From a virus: 10,505 nt of DNA. A model generated the notes under the pieces. The model did no database searches. It worked only from the letters and a program-made list of their open reading frames with translations, and was not told the DNA's origin. The stretch is taken from UHGV virus genome UHGV-1624474; one strand, given 5' to 3'. The first letter of the stretch is position 1. Every line of letters begins with the position of its first letter. Shown here in pieces: positions 1 to 10,505 of this stretch. Both the position numbers and the translations under genes were made by a program.

Positions 1-3
1 ATA

Positions 4-201
4 ATGTCGCTACCGCAGGAAACGAAAGAGGAAAAGGAATTTCGCCATTGTATATGGCTTGCAGAGAAAGAAGAACGCGAGCGAATTTACCAGACATCAA
101 TCCGACCATTCCGCAAAGCCACATATACCCACTTCCCTGAATATATCGACCCGCGCCTGCGTAATTACCGCTCACGCTATGGCGCTATCAGTAATGACTG
201 A
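4..201 (+). CDS. hypothetical prophage protein; frame is open back to nt 1, so the true start may lie upstream of the window
   Basis: 65-aa ORF ending at TGA 199-201. It is followed 7 nt later by the next start with its own Shine-Dalgarno, which fits the operon frame pattern. No recognisable motif. Confidence 0.35.
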
Positions 202-211
202 GGAATTTACC

Positions 212-376
212 ATGAGAGGACTTGCATACAATCCCGGCATTCTTCCGGCAGAAATGATTATTCGCCAACGCGTAAAGCCAATGCCATCGAGAGAGGAATT
301 GCTTAAGAGAAATAGTTTCGGTTCTGTTAATGACAACAAATATCTGAATGCGATGTGGCGGAGTGGGAAAAAATGA
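212..376 (+). CDS. small hypothetical protein (54 aa)
   Basis: ATG at 212 preceded by GAGGA (200-204) at 7-nt spacing. Stop TGA 374-376 overlaps the next start (ATGA). The ORF track lists a longer alternative frame start at 59 with no ribosome-binding site. Confidence 0.45.
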
Positions 377-972
377 AACAAATGTCACTAATTGAGATGG
401 ATGGTTTTCTGAAAGGTAAATGCATCCCAAGTGATTTAAAGGTTAACGAAACAAACGCTGAGTATCTGGTGCGTAAATTTGCTGAAGCGGAGGCCAAGAT
501 TTCGGCTCTGTCCGAAGACCACCAGAAAGCGATTGAGTCAATTAAGCAGGCTGATGCGGCTGTTAAGTTGGCACACGAGAAGTTTTCGGCGCTGGCGGCG
601 GAGAATGCGGGGCTGAAGGGTGCGTTTGATAAGCCTCAAGCATATCTATCCTGGCACGCTATTCCACCAAGCTGGGAAGACCCGCTCCCATGCGGTGAAT
701 ATCTTGATGTTCATGACGAGGCAGGACACAAAAACTCCGATGGAACTGATTGCTGGCCGGTATATGCCAAGCCAGAAATCGAGACCACAGCCACCTACGC
801 ATTCCTGGCTGAAGTACGGGCGCAGGGGGTAGAGATGTACGCAGATAACCTCGACAACGGAGCAGACGACGCAGAACGAGGTGGTTTTGATTATGCCGTT
901 AAGTTTCTACGCAGTGAAGCGTCTGGTGTACGTTTGTTCGCCGACCAGCTTCGCAAAGGAGGCAACCAGTGA
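373..972 (+). CDS. hypothetical prophage protein with predicted coiled-coil N-terminal half
   Basis: ORF track 355..972 (GTG 355). I prefer ATG 373, which overlaps the upstream stop as ATGA. Stop TGA 970-972 overlaps the next start (GTGA). Ala/Glu/Lys-rich heptad-like segment [48 protein letters not shown]. Confidence 0.65.
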
Positions 973-1829
973 GCAAGATTGATTATCAGGCACTGCGTGC
1001 TAAGGCAGAAAAAGCAACGTGTGGCGAGTGGTCTCTCGAGTATGGAGAGGGCCGATTTGATGGTGATGATGCACTAATTCATCGCGAGGCTGCTGGATAT
1101 ATTCCCATTTGCAGAATTGAAGGAGCGCATCCTGAAAGCGGTTTCGATGAAGATTTCCAAATAGAACAGCAGGCCAATGCTGAATTCATCGCCGCAGCCA
1201 ATCCGGCTACCGTCTTGGCGCTGCTGGATGAACTGGAAAGAAACCAGCAATACATCAAACGCCGCGACCAGGAGAACGAGGATATTGCGCTTACGGTTGG
1301 GAGGCTGCGCGTTGAGCTGGAAGGCAAAGACAGCAAAATAGCCAATCTTACCGCCGAACGCGATGCTCTTCGTGAAGGTGAGATGGGCGACGCTAGGCAT
1401 AGCAACACACGGGCCGCAGCTGATATCTACTTCCAACTGGTCGAGGAGTGCGAAATTCCTGCTGGCGGTTCTCTGGTCGAGTACGTTGACGATATGCGCG
1501 AGAAGCTGGAAGCCGCAGAGAAACGTCTGGCAGAACTACAATCTAAATCCATGCGACCTGTGGCGTGGATGAGAAGCGACGATATTACTACATTTGGACC
1601 AATATTCACCAAGAACGAAAACTATGCTGTTGAGCAGTGGGGAGATAATGCGGTAGCGCTTTATGCATCCCCAGTTAATTTCAAGTTGGCATGCTTCACT
1701 GACGAGAGAAATCTTAAGTACATCAATGAACGAGGAAGGGAGACATCTCTCATCTGGAGCGAAAGAAATTCAGAAAATGGTGATGTTCAACTTTTCCGCG
1801 CCGCAGGCATTCGCATCAAAGGAGAGTGA
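969..1829 (+). CDS. Ea22-like family prophage protein
   Basis: GTG start 969 with AAGGAGG at 954-960. N-terminus [21 protein letters not shown] and the motif FIAAANPATVLALLDELE match my recollection of ead/Ea22-like prophage proteins. Central coiled-coil; 286 aa. Confidence 0.7.
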   Translation: MSKIDYQALRAKAEKATCGEWSLEYGEGRFDGDDALIHREAAGYIPICRIEGAHPESGFDEDFQIEQQANAEFIAAANPATVLALLDELERNQQYIKRRDQENEDIALTVGRLRVELEGKDSKIANLTAERDALREGEMGDARHSNTRAAADIYFQLVEECEIPAGGSLVEYVDDMREKLEAAEKRLAELQSKSMRPVAWMRSDDITTFGPIFTKNENYAVEQWGDNAVALYASPVNFKLACFTDERNLKYINERGRETSLIWSERNSENGDVQLFRAAGIRIKGE

Positions 1830-1830
1830 T

Positions 1831-2118
1831 ATGGCAACTTTGCAGGAATTAATCGACCTGACGCCGGAACAGGAAAAAGCGTGGAATCGCCTTGTGAAGG
1901 CTGTAAAGGATTTCAGGGCATCCGGAGGAAAGTTTTATAGCGTCCTGGACACGCTGAGCGCATACAACGGTGAGCACGTTGCCAGCATTGATAACGATAA
2001 GGGCTACCACACTGCAAGCGTCTATATGCCTAGCATTGATGCGCCAGGGCTAACCAGTTGGGCTGATGATTGGCACGGCATCACGCTGAAAGATGGCGTT
2101 GAAGTGGATGAGGACTAA
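1831..2118 (+). CDS. hypothetical prophage protein (95 aa)
   Basis: ATG 1831 lies 1 nt after the upstream stop, with AAAGGAGAG at 1818-1826. The ORF track's 1663 start is an in-frame upstream extension overlapping the previous gene and is rejected. Confidence 0.65.
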   Translation: MATLQELIDLTPEQEKAWNRLVKAVKDFRASGGKFYSVLDTLSAYNGEHVASIDNDKGYHTASVYMPSIDAPGLTSWADDWHGITLKDGVEVDED

Positions 2119-2121
2119 CCC

Positions 2122-2814
2122 ATGACCACTATTACCAAAGAGCGACTACTGACAATCAAGCAGTGGCGCGAAACATACGGACCTGGTAGCAACGTTGTAC
2201 TGCCAGCAGAAGAAGCGGAAGAACTGGCACGAATTGCACTGGCATCGCTGGAAGCAGAACCGGTGGCGTGGATGCGTGATGACGCAGATGGTCGTGAGTA
2301 TAACGCTCGCAATGAATTTTCTGATGGAGGGAAAGGAATTCCGCTATATCGTGTGCCGCCAGCGCCGGAAGTGCCGGAAGAAATATATTGGCAGGATGCG
2401 CCAGTTGAAGGCAGCATCAAAGCGGCTGCATACGCTACAGACTGGAACGCCTGCCGCGCCGCCATGCTTCATGGTGCCAAACCTGTAAGCCAGACTTACA
2501 AGTTAAACGAGCTGTCGGGCAACTCTCCGGTAACTCCGGATGGTTGGATAAGCTGTAGTGAGCAGATGCCTGTAATCGGCGAGCTAAATTGGAGAACTAG
2601 TTTTCCTTTACTGGTTACGTGTGAGATCGGCGTTATACCTGCTTATTACGGCTTTGTGAGCGTTAATGGTGATAGGCATTATGGCTTTATGGAGAGTCTT
2701 AAATACGGAGACGATAACGGCAACCATCCTCAAACTAATGAATATGGTCTGATTAGCAATGTCACACACTGGATGCCTCTACCAGAACCGCCTCAGGAGG
2801 TTAACCGTGGCTAA
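2122..2814 (+). CDS. DUF551-like prophage protein
   Basis: ATG 2122 with GAGGA at 2110-2114. C-terminal segment WISCSEQMP...VTHWMPLPEPP resembles the DUF551 hallmark. N-terminal EAEPVAWMRDD module is shared with the Ea22-like protein. Confidence 0.7.
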   Translation: MTTITKERLLTIKQWRETYGPGSNVVLPAEEAEELARIALASLEAEPVAWMRDDADGREYNARNEFSDGGKGIPLYRVPPAPEVPEEIYWQDAPVEGSIKAAAYATDWNACRAAMLHGAKPVSQTYKLNELSGNSPVTPDGWISCSEQMPVIGELNWRTSFPLLVTCEIGVIPAYYGFVSVNGDRHYGFMESLKYGDDNGNHPQTNEYGLISNVTHWMPLPEPPQEVNRG

Positions 2815-3088
2815 TCTGCAACTTGCCGTTAAAGGTGAATACTTCGATGCCATGATTCGCGGGGAGAAAACGGAAGAGTATCGCTTGTGTAATGACTACT
2901 GGAATAAGCGAATTATGTTCCGGGAGTATGACCGCCTGATTATCACGAAGGGATATCCGAAGCGCGACGACTTCAGTCGCAGAATTGATGTCCCGTATGA
3001 CGGATATGAAATCAAGACAATCACACATCCCCACTTCGGCGATAAACCGGTAAAGGTATACGCGATAAAGGTGAATATCAATTGCTAA
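2807..3088 (+). CDS. ASCH/DUF3850-like (PUA-fold) small protein, tentative
   Basis: GTG 2807 with AGGAGG at 2795-2800, overlapping the upstream gene by 8 nt. Pattern GEYFDAMIRGEKTEEYR...YDRLIITKGY resembles ASCH-type domains. Track start 2759 lacks a ribosome-binding site. Confidence 0.5.
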   Translation: MANLQLAVKGEYFDAMIRGEKTEEYRLCNDYWNKRIMFREYDRLIITKGYPKRDDFSRRIDVPYDGYEIKTITHPHFGDKPVKVYAIKVNINC

Positions 3089-3112
3089 ATTAGTAGCATA
3101 GCATAAAGATGC

Positions 3113-3136
3113 TTGCATTAATGAAGTGTGTATAAT
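3113..3136 (+). promoter_or_regulatory. candidate sigma70-type promoter for the AT-rich small-ORF insert
   Basis: Perfect -10 TATAAT at 3131-3136 with TG-rich sequence immediately upstream. The nearest -35-like hexamer, TTGCAT 3113-3118, is at a suboptimal 12-nt spacing. Confidence 0.2.
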
Positions 3137-3199
3137 AACGCCTCATCAATAGTAAACTACTGAAATAGCAAAAAATGCATATTAAAGAGGATTCGAAAA

Positions 3200-3391
3200 T
3201 TGAAAATGTTCATGCAAATAGACAGACGCATAGATATTAATGGCAATTCATACTTAGTTAGATGCGAAGAGAGGCCTAACGGTGAGTGGCGTGTATATGA
3301 TATTGACCGTAAGATCAATATCAGCACCATGAACAAAGACACTGCCTTTGATGAATGGAAAGCTGAAGCTAAAAAACAACATAATTCGTAG
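3200..3391 (+). CDS. small hypothetical protein (63 aa) in AT-rich insert
   Basis: TTG 3200 lies 9 nt after AAAGAGG (3184-3190); ATG 3206 is an alternative. Stop TAG 3389-3391, followed by a hairpin terminator. No recognisable domain. Confidence 0.35.
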   Translation: MKMFMQIDRRIDINGNSYLVRCEERPNGEWRVYDIDRKINISTMNKDTAFDEWKAEAKKQHNS

Positions 3392-3433
3392 AATTACAAA
3401 AACCCTAACCAATTGATGGATTTCTTTTATCTG

Positions 3434-3460
3434 AACTCGCTACGGCGAGTTTTGTTTTAT
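3434..3460 (+). terminator. candidate intrinsic terminator
   Basis: 7-bp stem AACTCGC/GCGAGTT (3434-3440 / 3445-3451) with loop TACG, followed by TTGTTTTAT. Confidence 0.4.
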
Positions 3461-3471
3461 GGAGATGATAA

Positions 3472-3639
3472 ATGCACTTCCGAGTCACAGGTGAATGGAA
3501 TGGAGAGCCATTCAACAGGGTTATCGAAGCAGAGGACATCAACGACTGCTATAACCACTGGATGATATGGGCGCAGATAGCACATGCAGACGTAACCAAT
3601 ATTCGAATTGAAGAACTGAAAGAACACCAAACCGCCTGA
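3472..3639 (+). CDS. small hypothetical protein (55 aa)
   Basis: ATG 3472 with GGAG at 3461-3464 (7-nt spacing). Translation MHFRVTGEWNGEPFNRVIEAEDINDCYNHWMIWAQIAHADVTNIRIEELKEHQTA. Stop TGA 3637-3639 sits in the loop of the following terminator. Absent from the ORF track because it is under 60 aa. Confidence 0.4.
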   Translation: MHFRVTGEWNGEPFNRVIEAEDINDCYNHWMIWAQIAHADVTNIRIEELKEHQTA

Positions 3640-3654
3640 TGGCGGTTTTTTATT
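3630..3654 (+). terminator. rho-independent terminator
   Basis: Stem AACCGCC (3630-3636) / GGCGGTT (3641-3647) with loop TGAT, immediately followed by TTTTTTATT. Confidence 0.65.
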
Positions 3655-3696
3655 GCCTGATTTGCAGGTTCGATTCCCTATTCGGAGATAGCACTC

Positions 3697-3897
3697 ATGC
3701 AACACGAACTACAGCCTGATTCACTGGTTGATTTGAAATTCATCATGGCCGATACTGGCTTTGGTAAAACCTTCATCTACGACCGTATTAAGTCCGGCGA
3801 CTTGCCAAAAGCCAAAGTTATCCACGGGCGAGCAAGATGGTTATATCGTGACCATTGTGAATTCAAAAATAAGCTCTTAAGCCGCGCCAATGGGTAA
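3697..3897 (+). CDS. AlpA-family phage transcriptional regulator / excisionase (Xis-like)
   Basis: 66 aa. ATG 3697 with GGAGA at 3684-3688. Helix-turn-helix core LVDLKFIMADTGFGKTFIYDRIKSGDLPKAKVIHGRARWLYRD is typical of the AlpA/Xis (Phage_AlpA) family. Sits directly upstream of the integrase on the same strand. Confidence 0.85.
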   Translation: MQHELQPDSLVDLKFIMADTGFGKTFIYDRIKSGDLPKAKVIHGRARWLYRDHCEFKNKLLSRANG

Positions 3898-4109
3898 AAT
3901 AGCGGGTAAAATATTTCTCACATCTAAAAAACACCATTCCAATCAATCCCCTGCCGCCTCAAGTAGATGTCTGCAGGGGACACCATTTACACCTCTCCTG
4001 AAATCTACCATATCCCATAAAAAGCCTTTATAATCAGTATATACCCTTACTTATGTTACTCAAATAGTCGCCGTGATTCTCCTCAGGGGTACGTAAATCA
4101 AGTCACATT

Positions 4110-5441: not shown

Positions 5442-5913
5442 TCACTCCTCAATCAGTTTCAGCACATTGTTGACCTGTCTCCAGTATTCGATACAACCAT
5501 CAGTCAGCCTGCTGGCACGACGTTGCGACAGACCCGTTGCCTCACACATGACTTCCACGGCTTCCCACTTCTGTTCTGTCGTCAGAATTTCGGTCCAGAG
5601 CTACCTGAAGTACCTCCTTATCCAGCATGGTTTTGGCGAGCAGCGTCTTGAGGGGTCGTTCTCCTCTTCAGGTGTCTTAAGCCGCTTTACCTCAGGGACT
5701 TCTATTCCACCAAACTTCGGCGCCCGGTGTAGAAAGTAGCGTCTGAAATAGCATTCTTGCGGCAGAGTTCCCGGGCAGAAACGCCGGCTACGGCCTCGCG
5801 GAGGATACTGATAATCTGTTCGTCGGAAAACACTTCTTCATGGGGATACCCTAACGTTGCTGATGAAGACATTACTTACATCGTGGTATATTAATAAATG
5901 TGGGAGCAGGTCA
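5442..5913 (-). pseudogene. IS3-family (IS407-group-like) insertion sequence remnant: frameshifted orfA plus first codons of orfB, truncated
   Basis: Minus-strand ATG at 5872 gives MSSSATLGYPHEEVFSDEQIISILREAVAGVSARELCRKNAISDATFY, then a stop. Two shifted frames continue with KFGGIEVPEVKRLKTPEEEND, LLAKTMLDKEVLQVAL and EVMCEATGLSQRRASRL, matching the conserved IS3 OrfA pattern. Candidate terminal repeat TGACCTGCTCCCA on the minus strand at 5913-5901. No DDE domain follows. Confidence 0.7.
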
Positions 5914-6058: not shown

Positions 6059-7108
6059 TTGAGCAGCGAAAAAAAAAAGAAAGTTGGGTTAATGCTTGGG
6101 AATGGATTCACTATTGACCTCCTTAGCAAAATGGACAAACTTGATATAATTGACCCATCCGATCTATTTAAATATGGCGATATGGTTAAGTGGCCCGCCA
6201 CTGGGGAACCCGGTTTTCTTTCTGCTCGATATTGCCCAAATCTATGGCGATTGGGTGCAAGACCCGGGCTAAATAGAACCGCATCATATCAAATAATAGA
6301 AGAATTAATTACAGTAATAAATTTATATGCAACTCTACCTCCAGAAACAATAAAGAAGAAAAATCAGGCAAGTCATACTCCATTGTCAAACATTTACATT
6401 TATGCTTATCAAGAATTAGTTTCATATTTAAGGGAGCTTTTCATTGATTATAACGAAAAAGTTTCCTCTGAAGATCTACGTAAGTTAGAAAGTGGCTGGC
6501 GAGACTATTTGATGAAACTGGACAAAAACGAAAACATAGAACGAGTTGATATTATAACTTATAACTATGACATTTATCTTGAGCGCCTTCTTGATTTACT
6601 TAATATCAGATTTGACATCCCAAACATATCTGACGGGAATGCAAAGTTTAAAATATACAAACCACATGGCTCTATTAGCTTCTTGTATGAAGGATATATG
6701 TCAAAAGATAACTACAATATCCAAAAAGAGTTATCTTTAAATAATGGCGACATATCAAAATTCGAATGCCGGCATGAAAACTTAAGCCTTTACATGCCAT
6801 TAATTCCAATAATACCGCCAGCAGGAGAAGCTCATCGTTATGCCCAAAACTGGGCTAATTCAATTAAAGAGTCTATTGAAGCGACGATGGAGTCGTACAA
6901 CCCAAACGATGATTTCTTCATTTGTGGTATTTCATATTGGCATGTTGATCGTGCCGAAATTGATGCAATAATACGCAAAATAAACAGTGACGTTAATGTT
7001 AGAATGATTAATCCAGGAAATGTTGATGGTTTAAGTGCTATACTTGGAATGGTATTTAATAGTTATGTTCATCATTCATCATCTGAAGTTTTAAAGGAGC
7101 TTGCCTAA
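6059..7108 (+). CDS. SIR2-like (SIR2_2 / DHS-like NAD-binding fold) protein; putative NAD+-consuming defense effector
   Basis: 349 aa. TTG 6059 with AAGGA (6047-6051) at 7-nt spacing; ATG 6092 is an alternative start. Glycine loop LMLGNGFTID (aa 11-20), motif IITYNYDIYLE (aa 165-175; codons 6551-6583) and KPHGSI (aa 201-206; His codon 6665-6667) match the bacterial SIR2 hallmarks GAGxS / TTNYD / K-x-HGS. Hand-counted sample lines are about 25-40% G+C. Confidence 0.78.
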   Translation: MSSEKKKKVGLMLGNGFTIDLLSKMDKLDIIDPSDLFKYGDMVKWPATGEPGFLSARYCPNLWRLGARPGLNRTASYQIIEELITVINLYATLPPETIKKKNQASHTPLSNIYIYAYQELVSYLRELFIDYNEKVSSEDLRKLESGWRDYLMKLDKNENIERVDIITYNYDIYLERLLDLLNIRFDIPNISDGNAKFKIYKPHGSISFLYEGYMSKDNYNIQKELSLNNGDISKFECRHENLSLYMPLIPIIPPAGEAHRYAQNWANSIKESIEATMESYNPNDDFFICGISYWHVDRAEIDAIIRKINSDVNVRMINPGNVDGLSAILGMVFNSYVHHSSSEVLKELA

Positions 7109-8136
7109 TGGAAATTTTAAAGCGGGATTCAAACAGTATTAATATTGCTTCCTTTTGGGAGGGCTTTTCATTAGGCAAATTTAATTTTGATCCTCCTTAT
7201 CAAAGAGATAGTGTTTGGGATGAAGAAAAACAATCATTCTTTATAGATAGTATACTACGTAACTATCCAATTCCCCCTATATTTCTCCATCAAAAAATTG
7301 ATGATGACACCGGAAGAATCACGTTTGAAGTTGTTGACGGAAAACAGAGGCTCACTGCCATTGTTAATTTTATCAATGGCCAAATAACATCAGCAAGTGA
7401 GGAAGAAGATGATGAATTGACTGGTGTGTTTTTTTCCGATTTATCAACTTCTAAATATGCAGAAGTTAAAAAATTATTCTGGCGATATCAGATGCCTATA
7501 GAGTACATTGATACTGAAGACGAAAGAATAATTGATAGTATTTTCGACAGGCTTAACAGAAATGGTGAACGACTTAACGGACAAGAGTTAAGGAATGCCA
7601 AATATCATGATACTGATTTTTATAAAAAAATAGTAGAATATTCACAACGTGAATATTGGCAAAAATTGCTAGAGCACGTTGATAAGAAGAGAATGGAAGA
7701 CAAAGAGTTTGTATCTGAATTGATATTCACGATCCTTGAGGATGAAGTATTTGGTGCAACTCAAGACATAATTGATAGTCTTTACGAGAAGTATTGCACC
7801 AAGAATGGTGATGAAACAAATGAGGCATTTTCTATTTTTGAAAAAACAACTGACTATTTAGTTGATATGAATATTGATTTCAAAAGTCATAAAGCAAGCG
7901 GTGTTAGTCACTTATACGGAATCTTCAGTTATGCACTTTATTGCAGTAACAATAATGTTCCTGTAGAAGAAGCGTCAAATAGACTTTCCACCTTCCTGGA
8001 TAGCTTGTGGGAAAAAGATACACAACATAATGCGGAATTAAGAAGAGAATATAGAAAAACTATGAGTTCTAGCACAAAAAGCAAAACCCAACGCTCACGT
8101 AGAATTGAAGTGCTTTTAAATCTACTTCACGATTAA
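7108..8136 (+). CDS. DUF262 (ParB/Srx-like NTPase) domain protein; no recognisable DUF1524/HNH nuclease module
   Basis: 342 aa. ATG 7108 overlaps the upstream TAA by 1 nt (TAATG), with AAAGGAG at 7093-7099. DUF262 motifs FDPPYQRDSVWDEEK (YQR codons 7198-7206), IDSILRNYPIPPIFL and VVDGKQRLTAI (about 7327-7359). The C-terminal half is helical with no obvious H-N-H catalytic pattern. Confidence 0.85.
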   Translation: MEILKRDSNSINIASFWEGFSLGKFNFDPPYQRDSVWDEEKQSFFIDSILRNYPIPPIFLHQKIDDDTGRITFEVVDGKQRLTAIVNFINGQITSASEEEDDELTGVFFSDLSTSKYAEVKKLFWRYQMPIEYIDTEDERIIDSIFDRLNRNGERLNGQELRNAKYHDTDFYKKIVEYSQREYWQKLLEHVDKKRMEDKEFVSELIFTILEDEVFGATQDIIDSLYEKYCTKNGDETNEAFSIFEKTTDYLVDMNIDFKSHKASGVSHLYGIFSYALYCSNNNVPVEEASNRLSTFLDSLWEKDTQHNAELRREYRKTMSSSTKSKTQRSRRIEVLLNLLHD

Positions 8137-8178: not shown

Positions 8179-8788
8179 CTCTATCTTTTATTATTTCTCT
8201 TTGAGATATGAAGTAATACTTTAAAAATATAAATCACATTCATCGCATATGATATTGTGATATCCCCACATGGTGCATGTTCGTAGTCTATCCCTCAGGC
8301 AAATAATAATAGAAAGTTAACCGAATCAGTTATACTCTCACCCAGATATTAGGATGGCTAAATCAACATGAGTGCAAGGATCGTCTTGGGGGAAACATTG
8401 GCACTGTGTGATGGCTCATCATTAAAAAATCAGTTTATATCAAAAGTAAATGATTACAGAAAAACTATATTTATAGATAAAGAAAAAAGCATTTAATTAC
8501 TTCTTAAATATGATAATCACACTCTGTGAAATGATACTTTGACTTACTTCCAATTATTAAACCACGAGATTCATGCATTACCATAATCATTTAAGAAAAC
8601 AAAAGTCCGGCCTTTGCTCTTATCAACCACTACAATTCATAAAGAAATCCTGTTGATGCAAAAAAAAGACATTGATCACAATATCGAGTTAATCATTTGA
8701 AAGTTTATTACTCACATTGAAAAATTTCTCAGTATCAGATATACCAACGTTGAGGGCTTCCCTCTTACATCTCAAAAGGATAACTATC

Positions 8789-8917
8789 ATGGGTCTTAAA
8801 CCAGGTCCAAAACCAATTGCTAAATCGACAGGAAAACCGGATCAACGCCGACGAGATAATAAAGATACTCCTGGCAACACTCCGGGACTAAAGCCAAGTA
8901 AGTCCACCGGGAAGTAA
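8789..8917 (+). CDS. small Lys/Pro/Gly-rich protein (42 aa) with internal repeats
   Basis: ATG 8789 with AAGGA (8776-8780) at 8-nt spacing. Translation MGLKPGPKPIAKSTGKPDQRRRDNKDTPGNTPGLKPSKSTGK has GLKP and KSTGK each twice. -35-like TTGAAA at 8717-8722. Track start 8717 is an upstream TTG extension. Confidence 0.4.
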   Translation: MGLKPGPKPIAKSTGKPDQRRRDNKDTPGNTPGLKPSKSTGK

Positions 8918-8922
8918 AAAAT

Positions 8923-8951
8923 CAGGGTATAAATAAGTTATTTATACCCTG
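8923..8951. terminator. perfect palindromic hairpin between convergent genes; terminator for the minus-strand gene, possibly bidirectional
   Basis: CAGGGTATAAATAA (8923-8936), G, TTATTTATACCCTG (8938-8951): 14-bp perfect arms. On the minus strand the hairpin is followed by ATTTTTTA (complement of 8915-8922). Confidence 0.6.
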
Positions 8952-8965
8952 ACTACATATCCAGT

Positions 8966-9861
8966 TTACTGAAGGTGTTTCTGCAGCCAGATGCACGTTC
9001 CTTCTGTATCATACGCCTGTGCCCCATACCCTGTAGCAAGCAAAGTCTCTGGTAAATACTCGTCATATTTATCCAGGTACTTGTCAGGAACAACTGCAGC
9101 AAGCTCAAACTCTGAAGGTAACCCCGACAATAACATTTTCTTAAGTGCACGCTGAACAGAGGCAACGCCTGAGCCCTCTACCTCTATCACACCTGCAAAT
9201 GAACTGGCTTTAAAGCCACAACGTATAAGCAGGGACGTAATTGTATTGACAATTTTATCCCCCATCCACGGGATCACGTAGCAGTTCTGACCACTGGCAA
9301 TAAAACAGTGATTTTGTAGATTGTAGCGTTGGAAGTTGTCACTTCCTTCCGCGAAGAGGCTTCTGGCTGCGGCATCAGCATAATCAACTCTCTTGTTGCC
9401 TACCGCGATACGGTAATCATTTTCCCTGTAGATAGCGAGCATCTCCTGGCGAACAACATCATGAACAGACATCCCGCTACCACTGAATAGTGGTGGCTGC
9501 CCGCCTTTAGTCGCCTCAACATAGATAGCTTTTTTTCAACCTCGATCTCTGTCACTTTCCAGCGCTGTCCGCCGAAGATGATGTGCTGCTCCGGCAAAAG
9601 TGGGGAGTCTACAGGCACTGTGCCAAGAGTTCGGTTTCCCGTTACAATGCGAAACTCCTCAGATGTATTGAATACGGCATAAAACGTGTAGTGATTAATC
9701 AGCTTCTCCCCCTCAGCCCCGACAACTATTTAACCGCTGGCTAGTTGAGTGAGCAGGCCACATGTCCCCATATGTTTAAGCAGACTTTTGAAGTCATTTA
9801 TATCCACATTCCGGAACGGACCTGTCTGGCAAAGTTGTGACCAGAGCTGATCGGCACGAAC
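8966..9861 (-). pseudogene. decayed C-terminal fragment of a larger gene of unknown function (5' end removed by the IS insertion, in-frame stop, homopolymer frameshift)
   Basis: Minus-strand frame is open from the IS end (9861) to an in-frame TAA at 9732-9730, then continues to a frame break at the A7 run (plus-strand T7, 9530-9536). One extra A would join it to the 168-aa ORF 8966-9472. About 50% G+C. Reconstructed sequence about 295 aa; no family recognised. Confidence 0.6.
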
Positions 9862-10505
9862 TGAACCGCCCCGGGTTTCCTGGAGAGTGTTTTATCTGTG
9901 AACTCAGGCTGCCAGATCATCGTTTCCGATGGAAGCATAATAAGCTTTTTCTGCTTCTGCCGGAGGAGTATGGCCCAGCCTTCCCAGCAATCGTCGATTG
10001 TTATACCAGTCCACCCACGTTAGTGTGGCCAGTTCCACTTCTGCACGGTTTTTCCAGCTCTTACGGTGTATTACCTCCGCTTTGTAAAGACCATTGATGC
10101 TCTCAGCCATCGCGTTGTCATACGAGTCGCCTGTACTCCCTGTTGATGCCAGTAATCCGGCTTCTTTTAGTCGCTCCGTATAGGCCAGTGACACATACTG
10201 AGAGCCTTTATCGCTGTGATGGATGGTGCCAGACGGACGACGGGCCCACAACGCCTGCTCCAGCGCATCCAGCACGAATGTCGTTTCCATAGACGATGAG
10301 ACCCGCCACCCCACGATGTATCCGGCAAACACATCAATGATAAACGCCACATAGACGAAGCCCTGCCATGTGCTGACGTAAGTAAAATCAGCCACCCACA
10401 GCTGGTCAGGTCGTTCTGCCACGAACTGACGGTTTACGCGGTCGCCTGCGGCAACGGCTTTCCGGCTGATGGTCGTACGGACCTTTTTACCCCGGAGAAC
10501 ACCGG
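9862..10505 (-). mobile_element. IS3-family insertion sequence (IS629/IS3411-like), right end; continues beyond the window
   Basis: Terminal sequence TGAACCGCCCCGGG at 9862-9875 matches the inverted-repeat start I recall for IS629/IS1203/IS3411. The OrfB stop is 42 bp inside it. Confidence 0.75.
9904..10505 (-). CDS. IS3-family transposase OrfB (DDE integrase core), N-terminus outside the window
   Basis: Translation has NRQF-x-A-x-x-PDQLWVADFTYV, HSDKGSQYVS and DSYDNAMAESINGLYKAEVIH, the canonical IS3 DDE-region motifs. The frame is open from 10422 to the window edge at 10505 (GVLRGKKVRTTISRKAVAAGDRVNRQF...). Confidence 0.85.
   Translation of the reverse strand, partial: GVLRGKKVRTTISRKAVAAGDRVNRQFVAERPDQLWVADFTYVSTWQGFVYVAFIIDVFAGYIVGWRVSSSMETTFVLDALEQALWARRPSGTIHHSDKGSQYVSLAYTERLKEAGLLASTGSTGDSYDNAMAESINGLYKAEVIHRKSWKNRAEVELATLTWVDWYNNRRLLGRLGHTPPAEAEKAYYASIGNDDLAA

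Follow-up and report, generated by a model that had tools for sequence, protein, structure and literature searches.

Shango is a three-gene anti-phage system that encodes a TerB-like protein, an ATPase and a helicase (Millman et al. 2022, bioRxiv 10.1101/2022.05.11.491447; Johnson et al. 2023, PMC10250203). Its discovery came in parallel from islands of E. coli and from Pseudomonas aeruginosa, and for other alleles than the one decayed here protection against phages has been shown (bioRxiv 10.1101/2022.05.11.491447; PMC10250203), lambda-like phages and Mu being reported as sensitive; a role in membrane surveillance via TerB has been suggested (bioRxiv 10.1101/2022.05.11.491447). The Shango helicase, SngC, clusters with BrxHI, DruE and DpdJ in a defence-specific clade of SF2 helicases (PMC12278908). 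In BrxHI, three elements have been described after the helicase core: a winged helix, a small beta-barrel and, at the C-terminus, an Lhr-like alpha+beta domain, for the last of which DNA binding has been put forward as a role (PMC12839542).

Intact versions of the helicase gene are found in several hundred E. coli genomes. We used positions 8700-9900 of the window (the whole stretch of 10,505 nt analysed here) as a megablast query against 5,426 complete E. coli genomes. The matches lie under features annotated 'DEAD/DEAH box helicase', and genomes free of an insertion sequence (IS) carry a gene of 2,199 nt at this place. This gene, sngC, is intact (732 aa) in strains CFSAN061762, M217 and Eco_23-2667, and it stands last in an operon with the order sngA (769-aa TerB-domain protein), sngB (438-aa BrxD-like AAA+ ATPase) and sngC (Lhr-like DEAD-box helicase). 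Pfam assigns TerB_N, TerB and TerB_C to the intact SngA, BrxC_BrxD to SngB, and DEAD (residues 25-200) and Helicase_C (residues 261-363) to SngC, and the two neighbours of sngC match the PADLOC models of SngB (E = 2e-187) and SngA (E = 2.2e-102). About 454 genomes hold at least 80% of sngC together with the end of sngB. A preliminary description of this DNA, made from its letters alone, had asked for intact orthologues to be sought and their neighbours inspected; longer intact orthologues do exist, and in the three strains named their neighbours are sngA and sngB.

Intact sngABC was observed in no fewer than three distinct islands of E. coli: at argW together with a gene for an HsdR-N-domain protein, at tRNA-Phe near IbrB/PAPS-reductase genes, and in a third one that has kinase and FRG-domain genes. 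An allele that is 84% identical lies on a 95-kb record. These findings indicate that the cassette moves horizontally.

Comparison of the window with these operons leaves us highly confident that positions 8966-9861 are a non-functional 3' remnant of sngC, the gene of the Lhr-like SF2 helicase of Shango, and that it arose by stepwise, IS-linked decay. The features of the locus, with the evidence for each, are the following:

9862-10505, minus strand: 3' end of a copy of IS1203 (IS3 family), with the C-terminal part of the transposase, running off the end of the window (the terminal repeat ...CCCGGGGCGGTTCA ends at 9862)

8966-9861, minus strand: pseudogene, 3' remnant of sngC, codons 435-732 and the stop, with one nonsense codon and one -1 frameshift (PADLOC SngC model, protein and DNA alignments, PGAP)

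9733-9861, minus strand: leading piece of the frame, with sngC codons 435-477, at the end of the winged-helix region (43 codons, translation VRADQLW...LTQLASG; alignment; sub-threshold WH_Lhr match)

9730-9732, minus strand: nonsense mutation in codon 478, GAA (Glu) to TAA, by G to T at sngC nt 1432 (alignment to intact alleles)

9529-9536, minus strand: run of seven A with one G after it, against GG in intact alleles, which shifts the frame by -1 at codon 545/546 (alignment context)

8969-9529, minus strand: last frame piece, sngC codons 546-732, homologous to the C-terminal region of BrxHI, reading AIYVEATKGG...CIWLQKHLQ up to the stop (translation, PADLOC, alignment)

8966-8968, minus strand: native sngC stop codon, TAA here and TAG in three intact alleles (nt 2199, A versus G; alignment)

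8920-8954, minus strand: intrinsic terminator hairpin with a 16-bp stem and a T run, 11 nt past the sngC stop (sequence)

The identification rests on the reading obtained when the nonsense codon is read through and the frameshift is repaired. This 298-aa reading matches the PADLOC model of SngC with E = 2.9e-82 over model positions 434-719 of 720, and 289 of its 298 residues (97%) are identical to residues 435-732 of the intact 732-aa E. coli SngC; a chance pattern is excluded because of this identity. SngC is thus the best profile match, it extends end to end over the surviving part, and the remnant shares the native stop position and the terminator of the intact gene. It differs from SngC in that just the last 298 of 732 codons are present, broken by a stop and a frameshift, and in that the DEAD/Helicase_C core, sngB and sngA are absent.

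The preliminary description had called this a gene of unknown function, had guessed that it was the remnant of a defence locus, and had proposed a search with the repaired frame. The guess was correct, and a profile search with the repaired frame yields the match to SngC. 'Unknown function' has to be withdrawn, since the family was already on record by 2022 under the name SngC, the Shango helicase. The decayed state of the gene is likewise on record: PGAP lists it as a pseudogene in E. coli ATCC 8739 (100% identical), with the label 'DEAD/DEAH box helicase; frameshifted; internal stop; incomplete; missing N-terminus'. What the present analysis provides is the exact name, sngC of Shango, for a pseudogene that annotation labels just 'DEAD/DEAH box helicase'.

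The relative to be weighed against SngC is BrxHI, and with it the reading that a type 2 BREX (Pgl) helicase, standing beside BrxD, left this fragment behind. SngC and BrxHI belong to the same helicase clade (PMC12278908), and the fragment is homologous to BrxHI along its whole length, including the C-terminal region (model positions 403-690 of 698, E = 2.7e-17). The ATPase-helicase gene pair also has the same layout as BrxD-BrxHI, SngB matches BrxD with E = 1.2e-43, and PGAP names the neighbouring sngB stump of related genomes a 'BREX system ATP-binding domain-containing protein'. However, the Shango models score far higher throughout: 2.9e-82 versus 2.7e-17 for the fragment, 8e-278 versus 1.6e-115 for the intact orthologue, and 2e-187 versus 1.2e-43 for the ATPase. 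Moreover, the third gene in all three intact orthologous loci inspected (L003, L004 and L007) is a TerB_N/TerB/TerB_C protein, SngA, in place of the PglX, PglZ, PglW and BrxC of type 2 BREX, none of which is adjacent in those three loci. With its weaker profile score, and with a TerB partner in the intact operons, membership in BrxHI was rejected, and we consider a type 2 BREX origin exceedingly improbable.

At the level of the sequence, three-frame translation divides 8966-9861 (minus strand) into three frame pieces, split by the TAA at 9732-9730 and by the -1 frameshift beside the A7 run at 9536-9530. The middle piece, after the TAA, reads IVVGAEGEKL...KVTEIEVEKK as far as the A7 run, and the 168-aa ATG open reading frame (ORF) given by the ORF list at 8966-9472 sits within the last piece. 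Translation hereby reproduces all that had been reported of the layout in the preliminary description (its coordinates, the 43 open codons, the TAA, the A7 run and the 168-aa ORF ending at 8966), and the frame chosen there is the true frame of the gene, because 9861 is position 1 of codon 435 in intact sngC. Together with alignment to the intact alleles, translation also shows that the three lesions named there, the IS, the nonsense codon and the frameshift, are all real. The frameshift had been read as an altered length of the A run, and this part does not stand: intact alleles read GAAAAAAAGG where the window reads GAAAAAAAG, which means that one G of the GG beside the run was lost (A7GG to A7G) and that the A7 itself is unchanged. 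The repair by insertion of one A yields the same protein as restoring the G.

The hairpin at 8920-8954 is potentially bidirectional, as it also lies 3' of a small convergent ORF on the plus strand. This ORF (8786-8914, 42 aa, basic, MGLKPGPKPIAKSTGKPDQRRRDNKDTPGNTPGLKPSKSTGK) converges on sngC and stops shortly before the shared hairpin; it has no Pfam match.

How much of the gene is gone follows from the position of the break. Codon 435 begins at 9861, and therefore the whole ATPase/helicase core (residues about 25-365) was in the missing part; codons 435-732 are all that is kept, and the core by which an SF2 helicase is recognized is not among them. Neither sngA nor sngB is next to the helicase remnant in the window, where the gene abuts IS1203. 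Because the IS runs past the end of the window, its far side and the lack of sngA and sngB there are deduced for this genome from 18 genomes with the same junction (see below). In these junction genomes the missing 5' part of sngC and sngB were not found elsewhere, as the query matched at one place only, covering 36% of its length. With the core, sngB and sngA gone, neither the helicase nor the Shango system can therefore be made. The fragment descends from a member of the SngC family and is not itself a functional member, and protection against phages by the remnant is not expected. This is of use for the curation of defence-system counts, in which tools should not score the locus as Shango.

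By homology to BrxHI only, the surviving 298 codons would encode the end of the winged helix followed by C-terminal domains of the DNA-binding type. Pfam gave sub-threshold hits only on the repaired fragment (zf-C17orf113 and WH_Lhr) and assigned no family; WH_Lhr scored 11.8 bits on the fragment and 18.9 bits on the intact protein (residues 406-465), for a Pfam cut-off of 27. A comparison of the fragment with PDB chains by sequence matched no solved structure, and an AlphaFold model computed for the last 187 residues from the single sequence (mean pLDDT 34.8) was too poor for fold comparison and was discarded. The intact SngC resembles Lhr/Lhr-core and ligase-associated DEXH helicases (PDB 5v9x and 7lhl; TIGR04121), which it matches over residues about 4-468, but the part present in the window lies almost wholly past the matched region.

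The boundary with the IS could be placed exactly: the IS1203 repeat ends at 9862, and homology to the IS-free genomes ends at 9861. Assignment to IS1203 was judged by a terminal inverted repeat and a two-ORF transposase with a programmed frameshift, and the element has these hallmarks. Its terminal inverted repeat reads TGAACCGCCCCGG..., and in ATCC 8739 it is a 1310-bp element with both repeats, labelled 'IS3-like element IS1203 family transposase' by PGAP. That copy has no target-site duplication, its flanks being GTTC... and ...AGGC. Compared with the arrangement seen in strain NS-NP030, it replaces 2.16 kb, made up of sngC codons 1-434, a stump of sngB and about 0.4 kb of an older IS. Disruption of the gene by an IS, as the preliminary description had it, is thus upheld, but a simple insertion is not, given that there is no target-site duplication, that 2.16 kb were replaced and that the front end of the operon had been lost earlier. 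We infer that IS1203 inserted and that an IS-mediated adjacent deletion followed. The complete IS1203 end at the gene, the lack of a target duplication and the 2.16-kb loss resemble the IS-mediated decay of defence islands through adjacent deletions by IS3-family elements (IS1203/IS629), as does the clustering of other IS fragments around the sngC remnant, and nothing here departs from that pattern.

The same IS1203 junction is present in exactly 18 of the 5,426 genomes, and the TAA occurs in the same 18 and nowhere else. Twelve further junction candidates were excluded as other IS copies with chance extensions of 89-91%. This distribution bears on whether the frameshift, or even all of the lesions, could be errors of sequencing or assembly, with the gene itself intact. 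The 1-bp loss is directly beside the A7 homopolymer, a classic site of sequencing errors, and the distribution of the G loss is incongruent with the other markers. Against this, the IS junction and the TAA are identical across 18 independent assemblies, the G deletion is found in 8 assemblies from different laboratories, including that of ATCC 8739, and without the frameshift the gene would still be short by 434 codons and interrupted by a stop. We therefore regard errors as a very unlikely source of what we describe as decay of sngC.

Sister genomes allow the lesions to be ordered. Apart from the TAA, the haplotype of the window is that of nine genomes similar to strain R1 (R1, RM11911, NS-NP030 and others), from which it is 0-1 SNP apart and which share its island, with genes for an integrase, a SIR2-like protein and a DUF262 protein. 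In these R1-like genomes sngA is gone, and the last 137 codons of sngB are kept beside an IS3-family pseudogene; sngC is full-length with an additional A at nt 844 (codon 282), and secondary indels vary among R1, RM11911 and NS-NP030. R1 shares the G loss (nt 1635), and RM11911 instead deletes an A at nt 1451. The secondary indels of sister genomes thus differ, and independent lesions had therefore been building up since the front end of the operon was lost. In R1 itself (locus L002, 12267-14465), the additional A and the G loss restore the length of 2,199 nt, with the 264 codons between them out of frame; a check of length alone misses this pseudogene.

The haplotype comprises 31 genomes, of which 18 are truncated by IS1203, 9 are R1-like and 4 are others. 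The G loss occurs in 8 of the 31: 6 of the 18 truncated ones, and 2 of the 9 R1-like genomes, which lack both the IS and the TAA. The remaining 12 of the 18 junction genomes do not have it. Its presence in both sub-lineages requires either recurrence at a slippage-prone site, or recombination, or a homopolymer-linked assembly error.

The events themselves are shown by the sister genomes, and their best ordering begins in the argW (tRNA-Arg) island, where an IS3-family element took out sngA together with the first two-thirds of sngB; sngC gained the A in codon 282. Subsequently, in one sub-lineage now seen in 18 of the 5,426 genomes, IS1203 replaced the 2.16 kb and codon 478 changed from GAA to TAA, with no order between these two. 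The loss of one G after the A7, at codon 545, came last, in 6 of the 18 and in the window. We infer that the first event removed selection on sngC and that the later lesions represent neutral decay. The locus is a clean stepwise case of IS elements dismantling a defence operon in the E. coli tRNA-Arg island, in which every intermediate survives in sequenced strains; it is a small case study of defence-gene turnover and matters little by itself.

Two other readings would give the late lesions or their products a function. A7GG might be a recurrent mutational hotspot that switches the Shango helicase off in a manner similar to phase variation, as the identical loss of G turns up in two sub-lineages set apart by the IS and TAA markers; alternatively, the C-terminal ORF, expressed by read-through from IS1203, might hamper an incoming Shango system. 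We give this pair of ideas very little credence. A related proposal is that the leftover C-terminal ORF (168 aa from the ATG at 9472, or a frame of 189 codons from 9535) is expressed, for instance through IS1203 read-through, and serves, in a retained or newly gained function, as a putative stand-alone DNA-binding domain or decoy. The ORF is open to the native stop, with a strong terminator after it; it is co-oriented with the IS1203 transposase gene, and its C-terminal region is homologous to that of BrxHI, for which a DNA-binding role was proposed (PMC12839542). Yet its boundary is not conserved, since 12 of the 18 junction genomes lack the frameshift and read differently, and a scan of the minus strand of 8600-9900 for promoter-like sites found none. 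The surviving part shows 8 nonsynonymous to 4 synonymous changes, and PGAP classes the stretch as a pseudogene. An expressed and functional leftover is, in our judgement, extremely unlikely, and a decaying remnant of sngC is the reading that we retain.

Relaxed selection, which the preliminary description had deduced from the three lesions, is apparent over the whole gene. The degraded branch has 14 nonsynonymous versus 7 synonymous changes, compared with about 14:37, 8:17 and 10:41 in pairwise comparisons of the intact alleles (Fisher p = 0.003, 0.04 and 0.0002 versus the degraded branch), and the sister genomes carry extra frameshifts. Over the surviving 298 codons alone the claim does not reach significance (8:4, p = 0.4-0.7, at low power). 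Among the intact alleles, pairwise dN/dS lies at 0.04-0.11 for the helicase core and at 0.19-0.37 for the C-terminal part. The pattern of the degraded branch fits relaxed selection, with little weight for the fragment alone.

In reference genomes the island is located at the tRNA-Arg gene argW, downstream of yfdC. The 'defence operon' beside which the preliminary description had placed the decaying gene is a pair of overlapping plus-strand genes (6059-7108 and 7108-8136) which is intact and conserved in the same island. The first is annotated by PGAP as 'SIR2 family protein' or 'hypothetical', has a sub-threshold Pfam match to AbiH and matches no PADLOC model. The second is a DUF262/GmrSD_N gene that matches the PADLOC models NsnA (1.9e-39) and PD-T4-2_A (1.4e-27). 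With its first gene unmatched, the pair is not among the systems that PADLOC names. A transposase pseudogene fragment (5467-5873; 'transposase; frameshifted; incomplete' at the corresponding place in the PGAP annotation of ATCC 8739) separates the integrase from the SIR2-like gene and is another sign of heavy IS traffic in the island.

The left part of the window (1-3988) contains early genes of a lambdoid prophage, among them Ead/Ea22-like (969-1829) and DUF551 (2122-2814) genes, and no whole tRNA. This prophage part ends at an incomplete copy of the tRNA-Arg (argW) 3' end at 3971-3988, which divides it from the island. The two are not joined in any of the 5,426 complete E. coli genomes, a finding which suggests that prophage and island sit in tandem at argW in the source genome.
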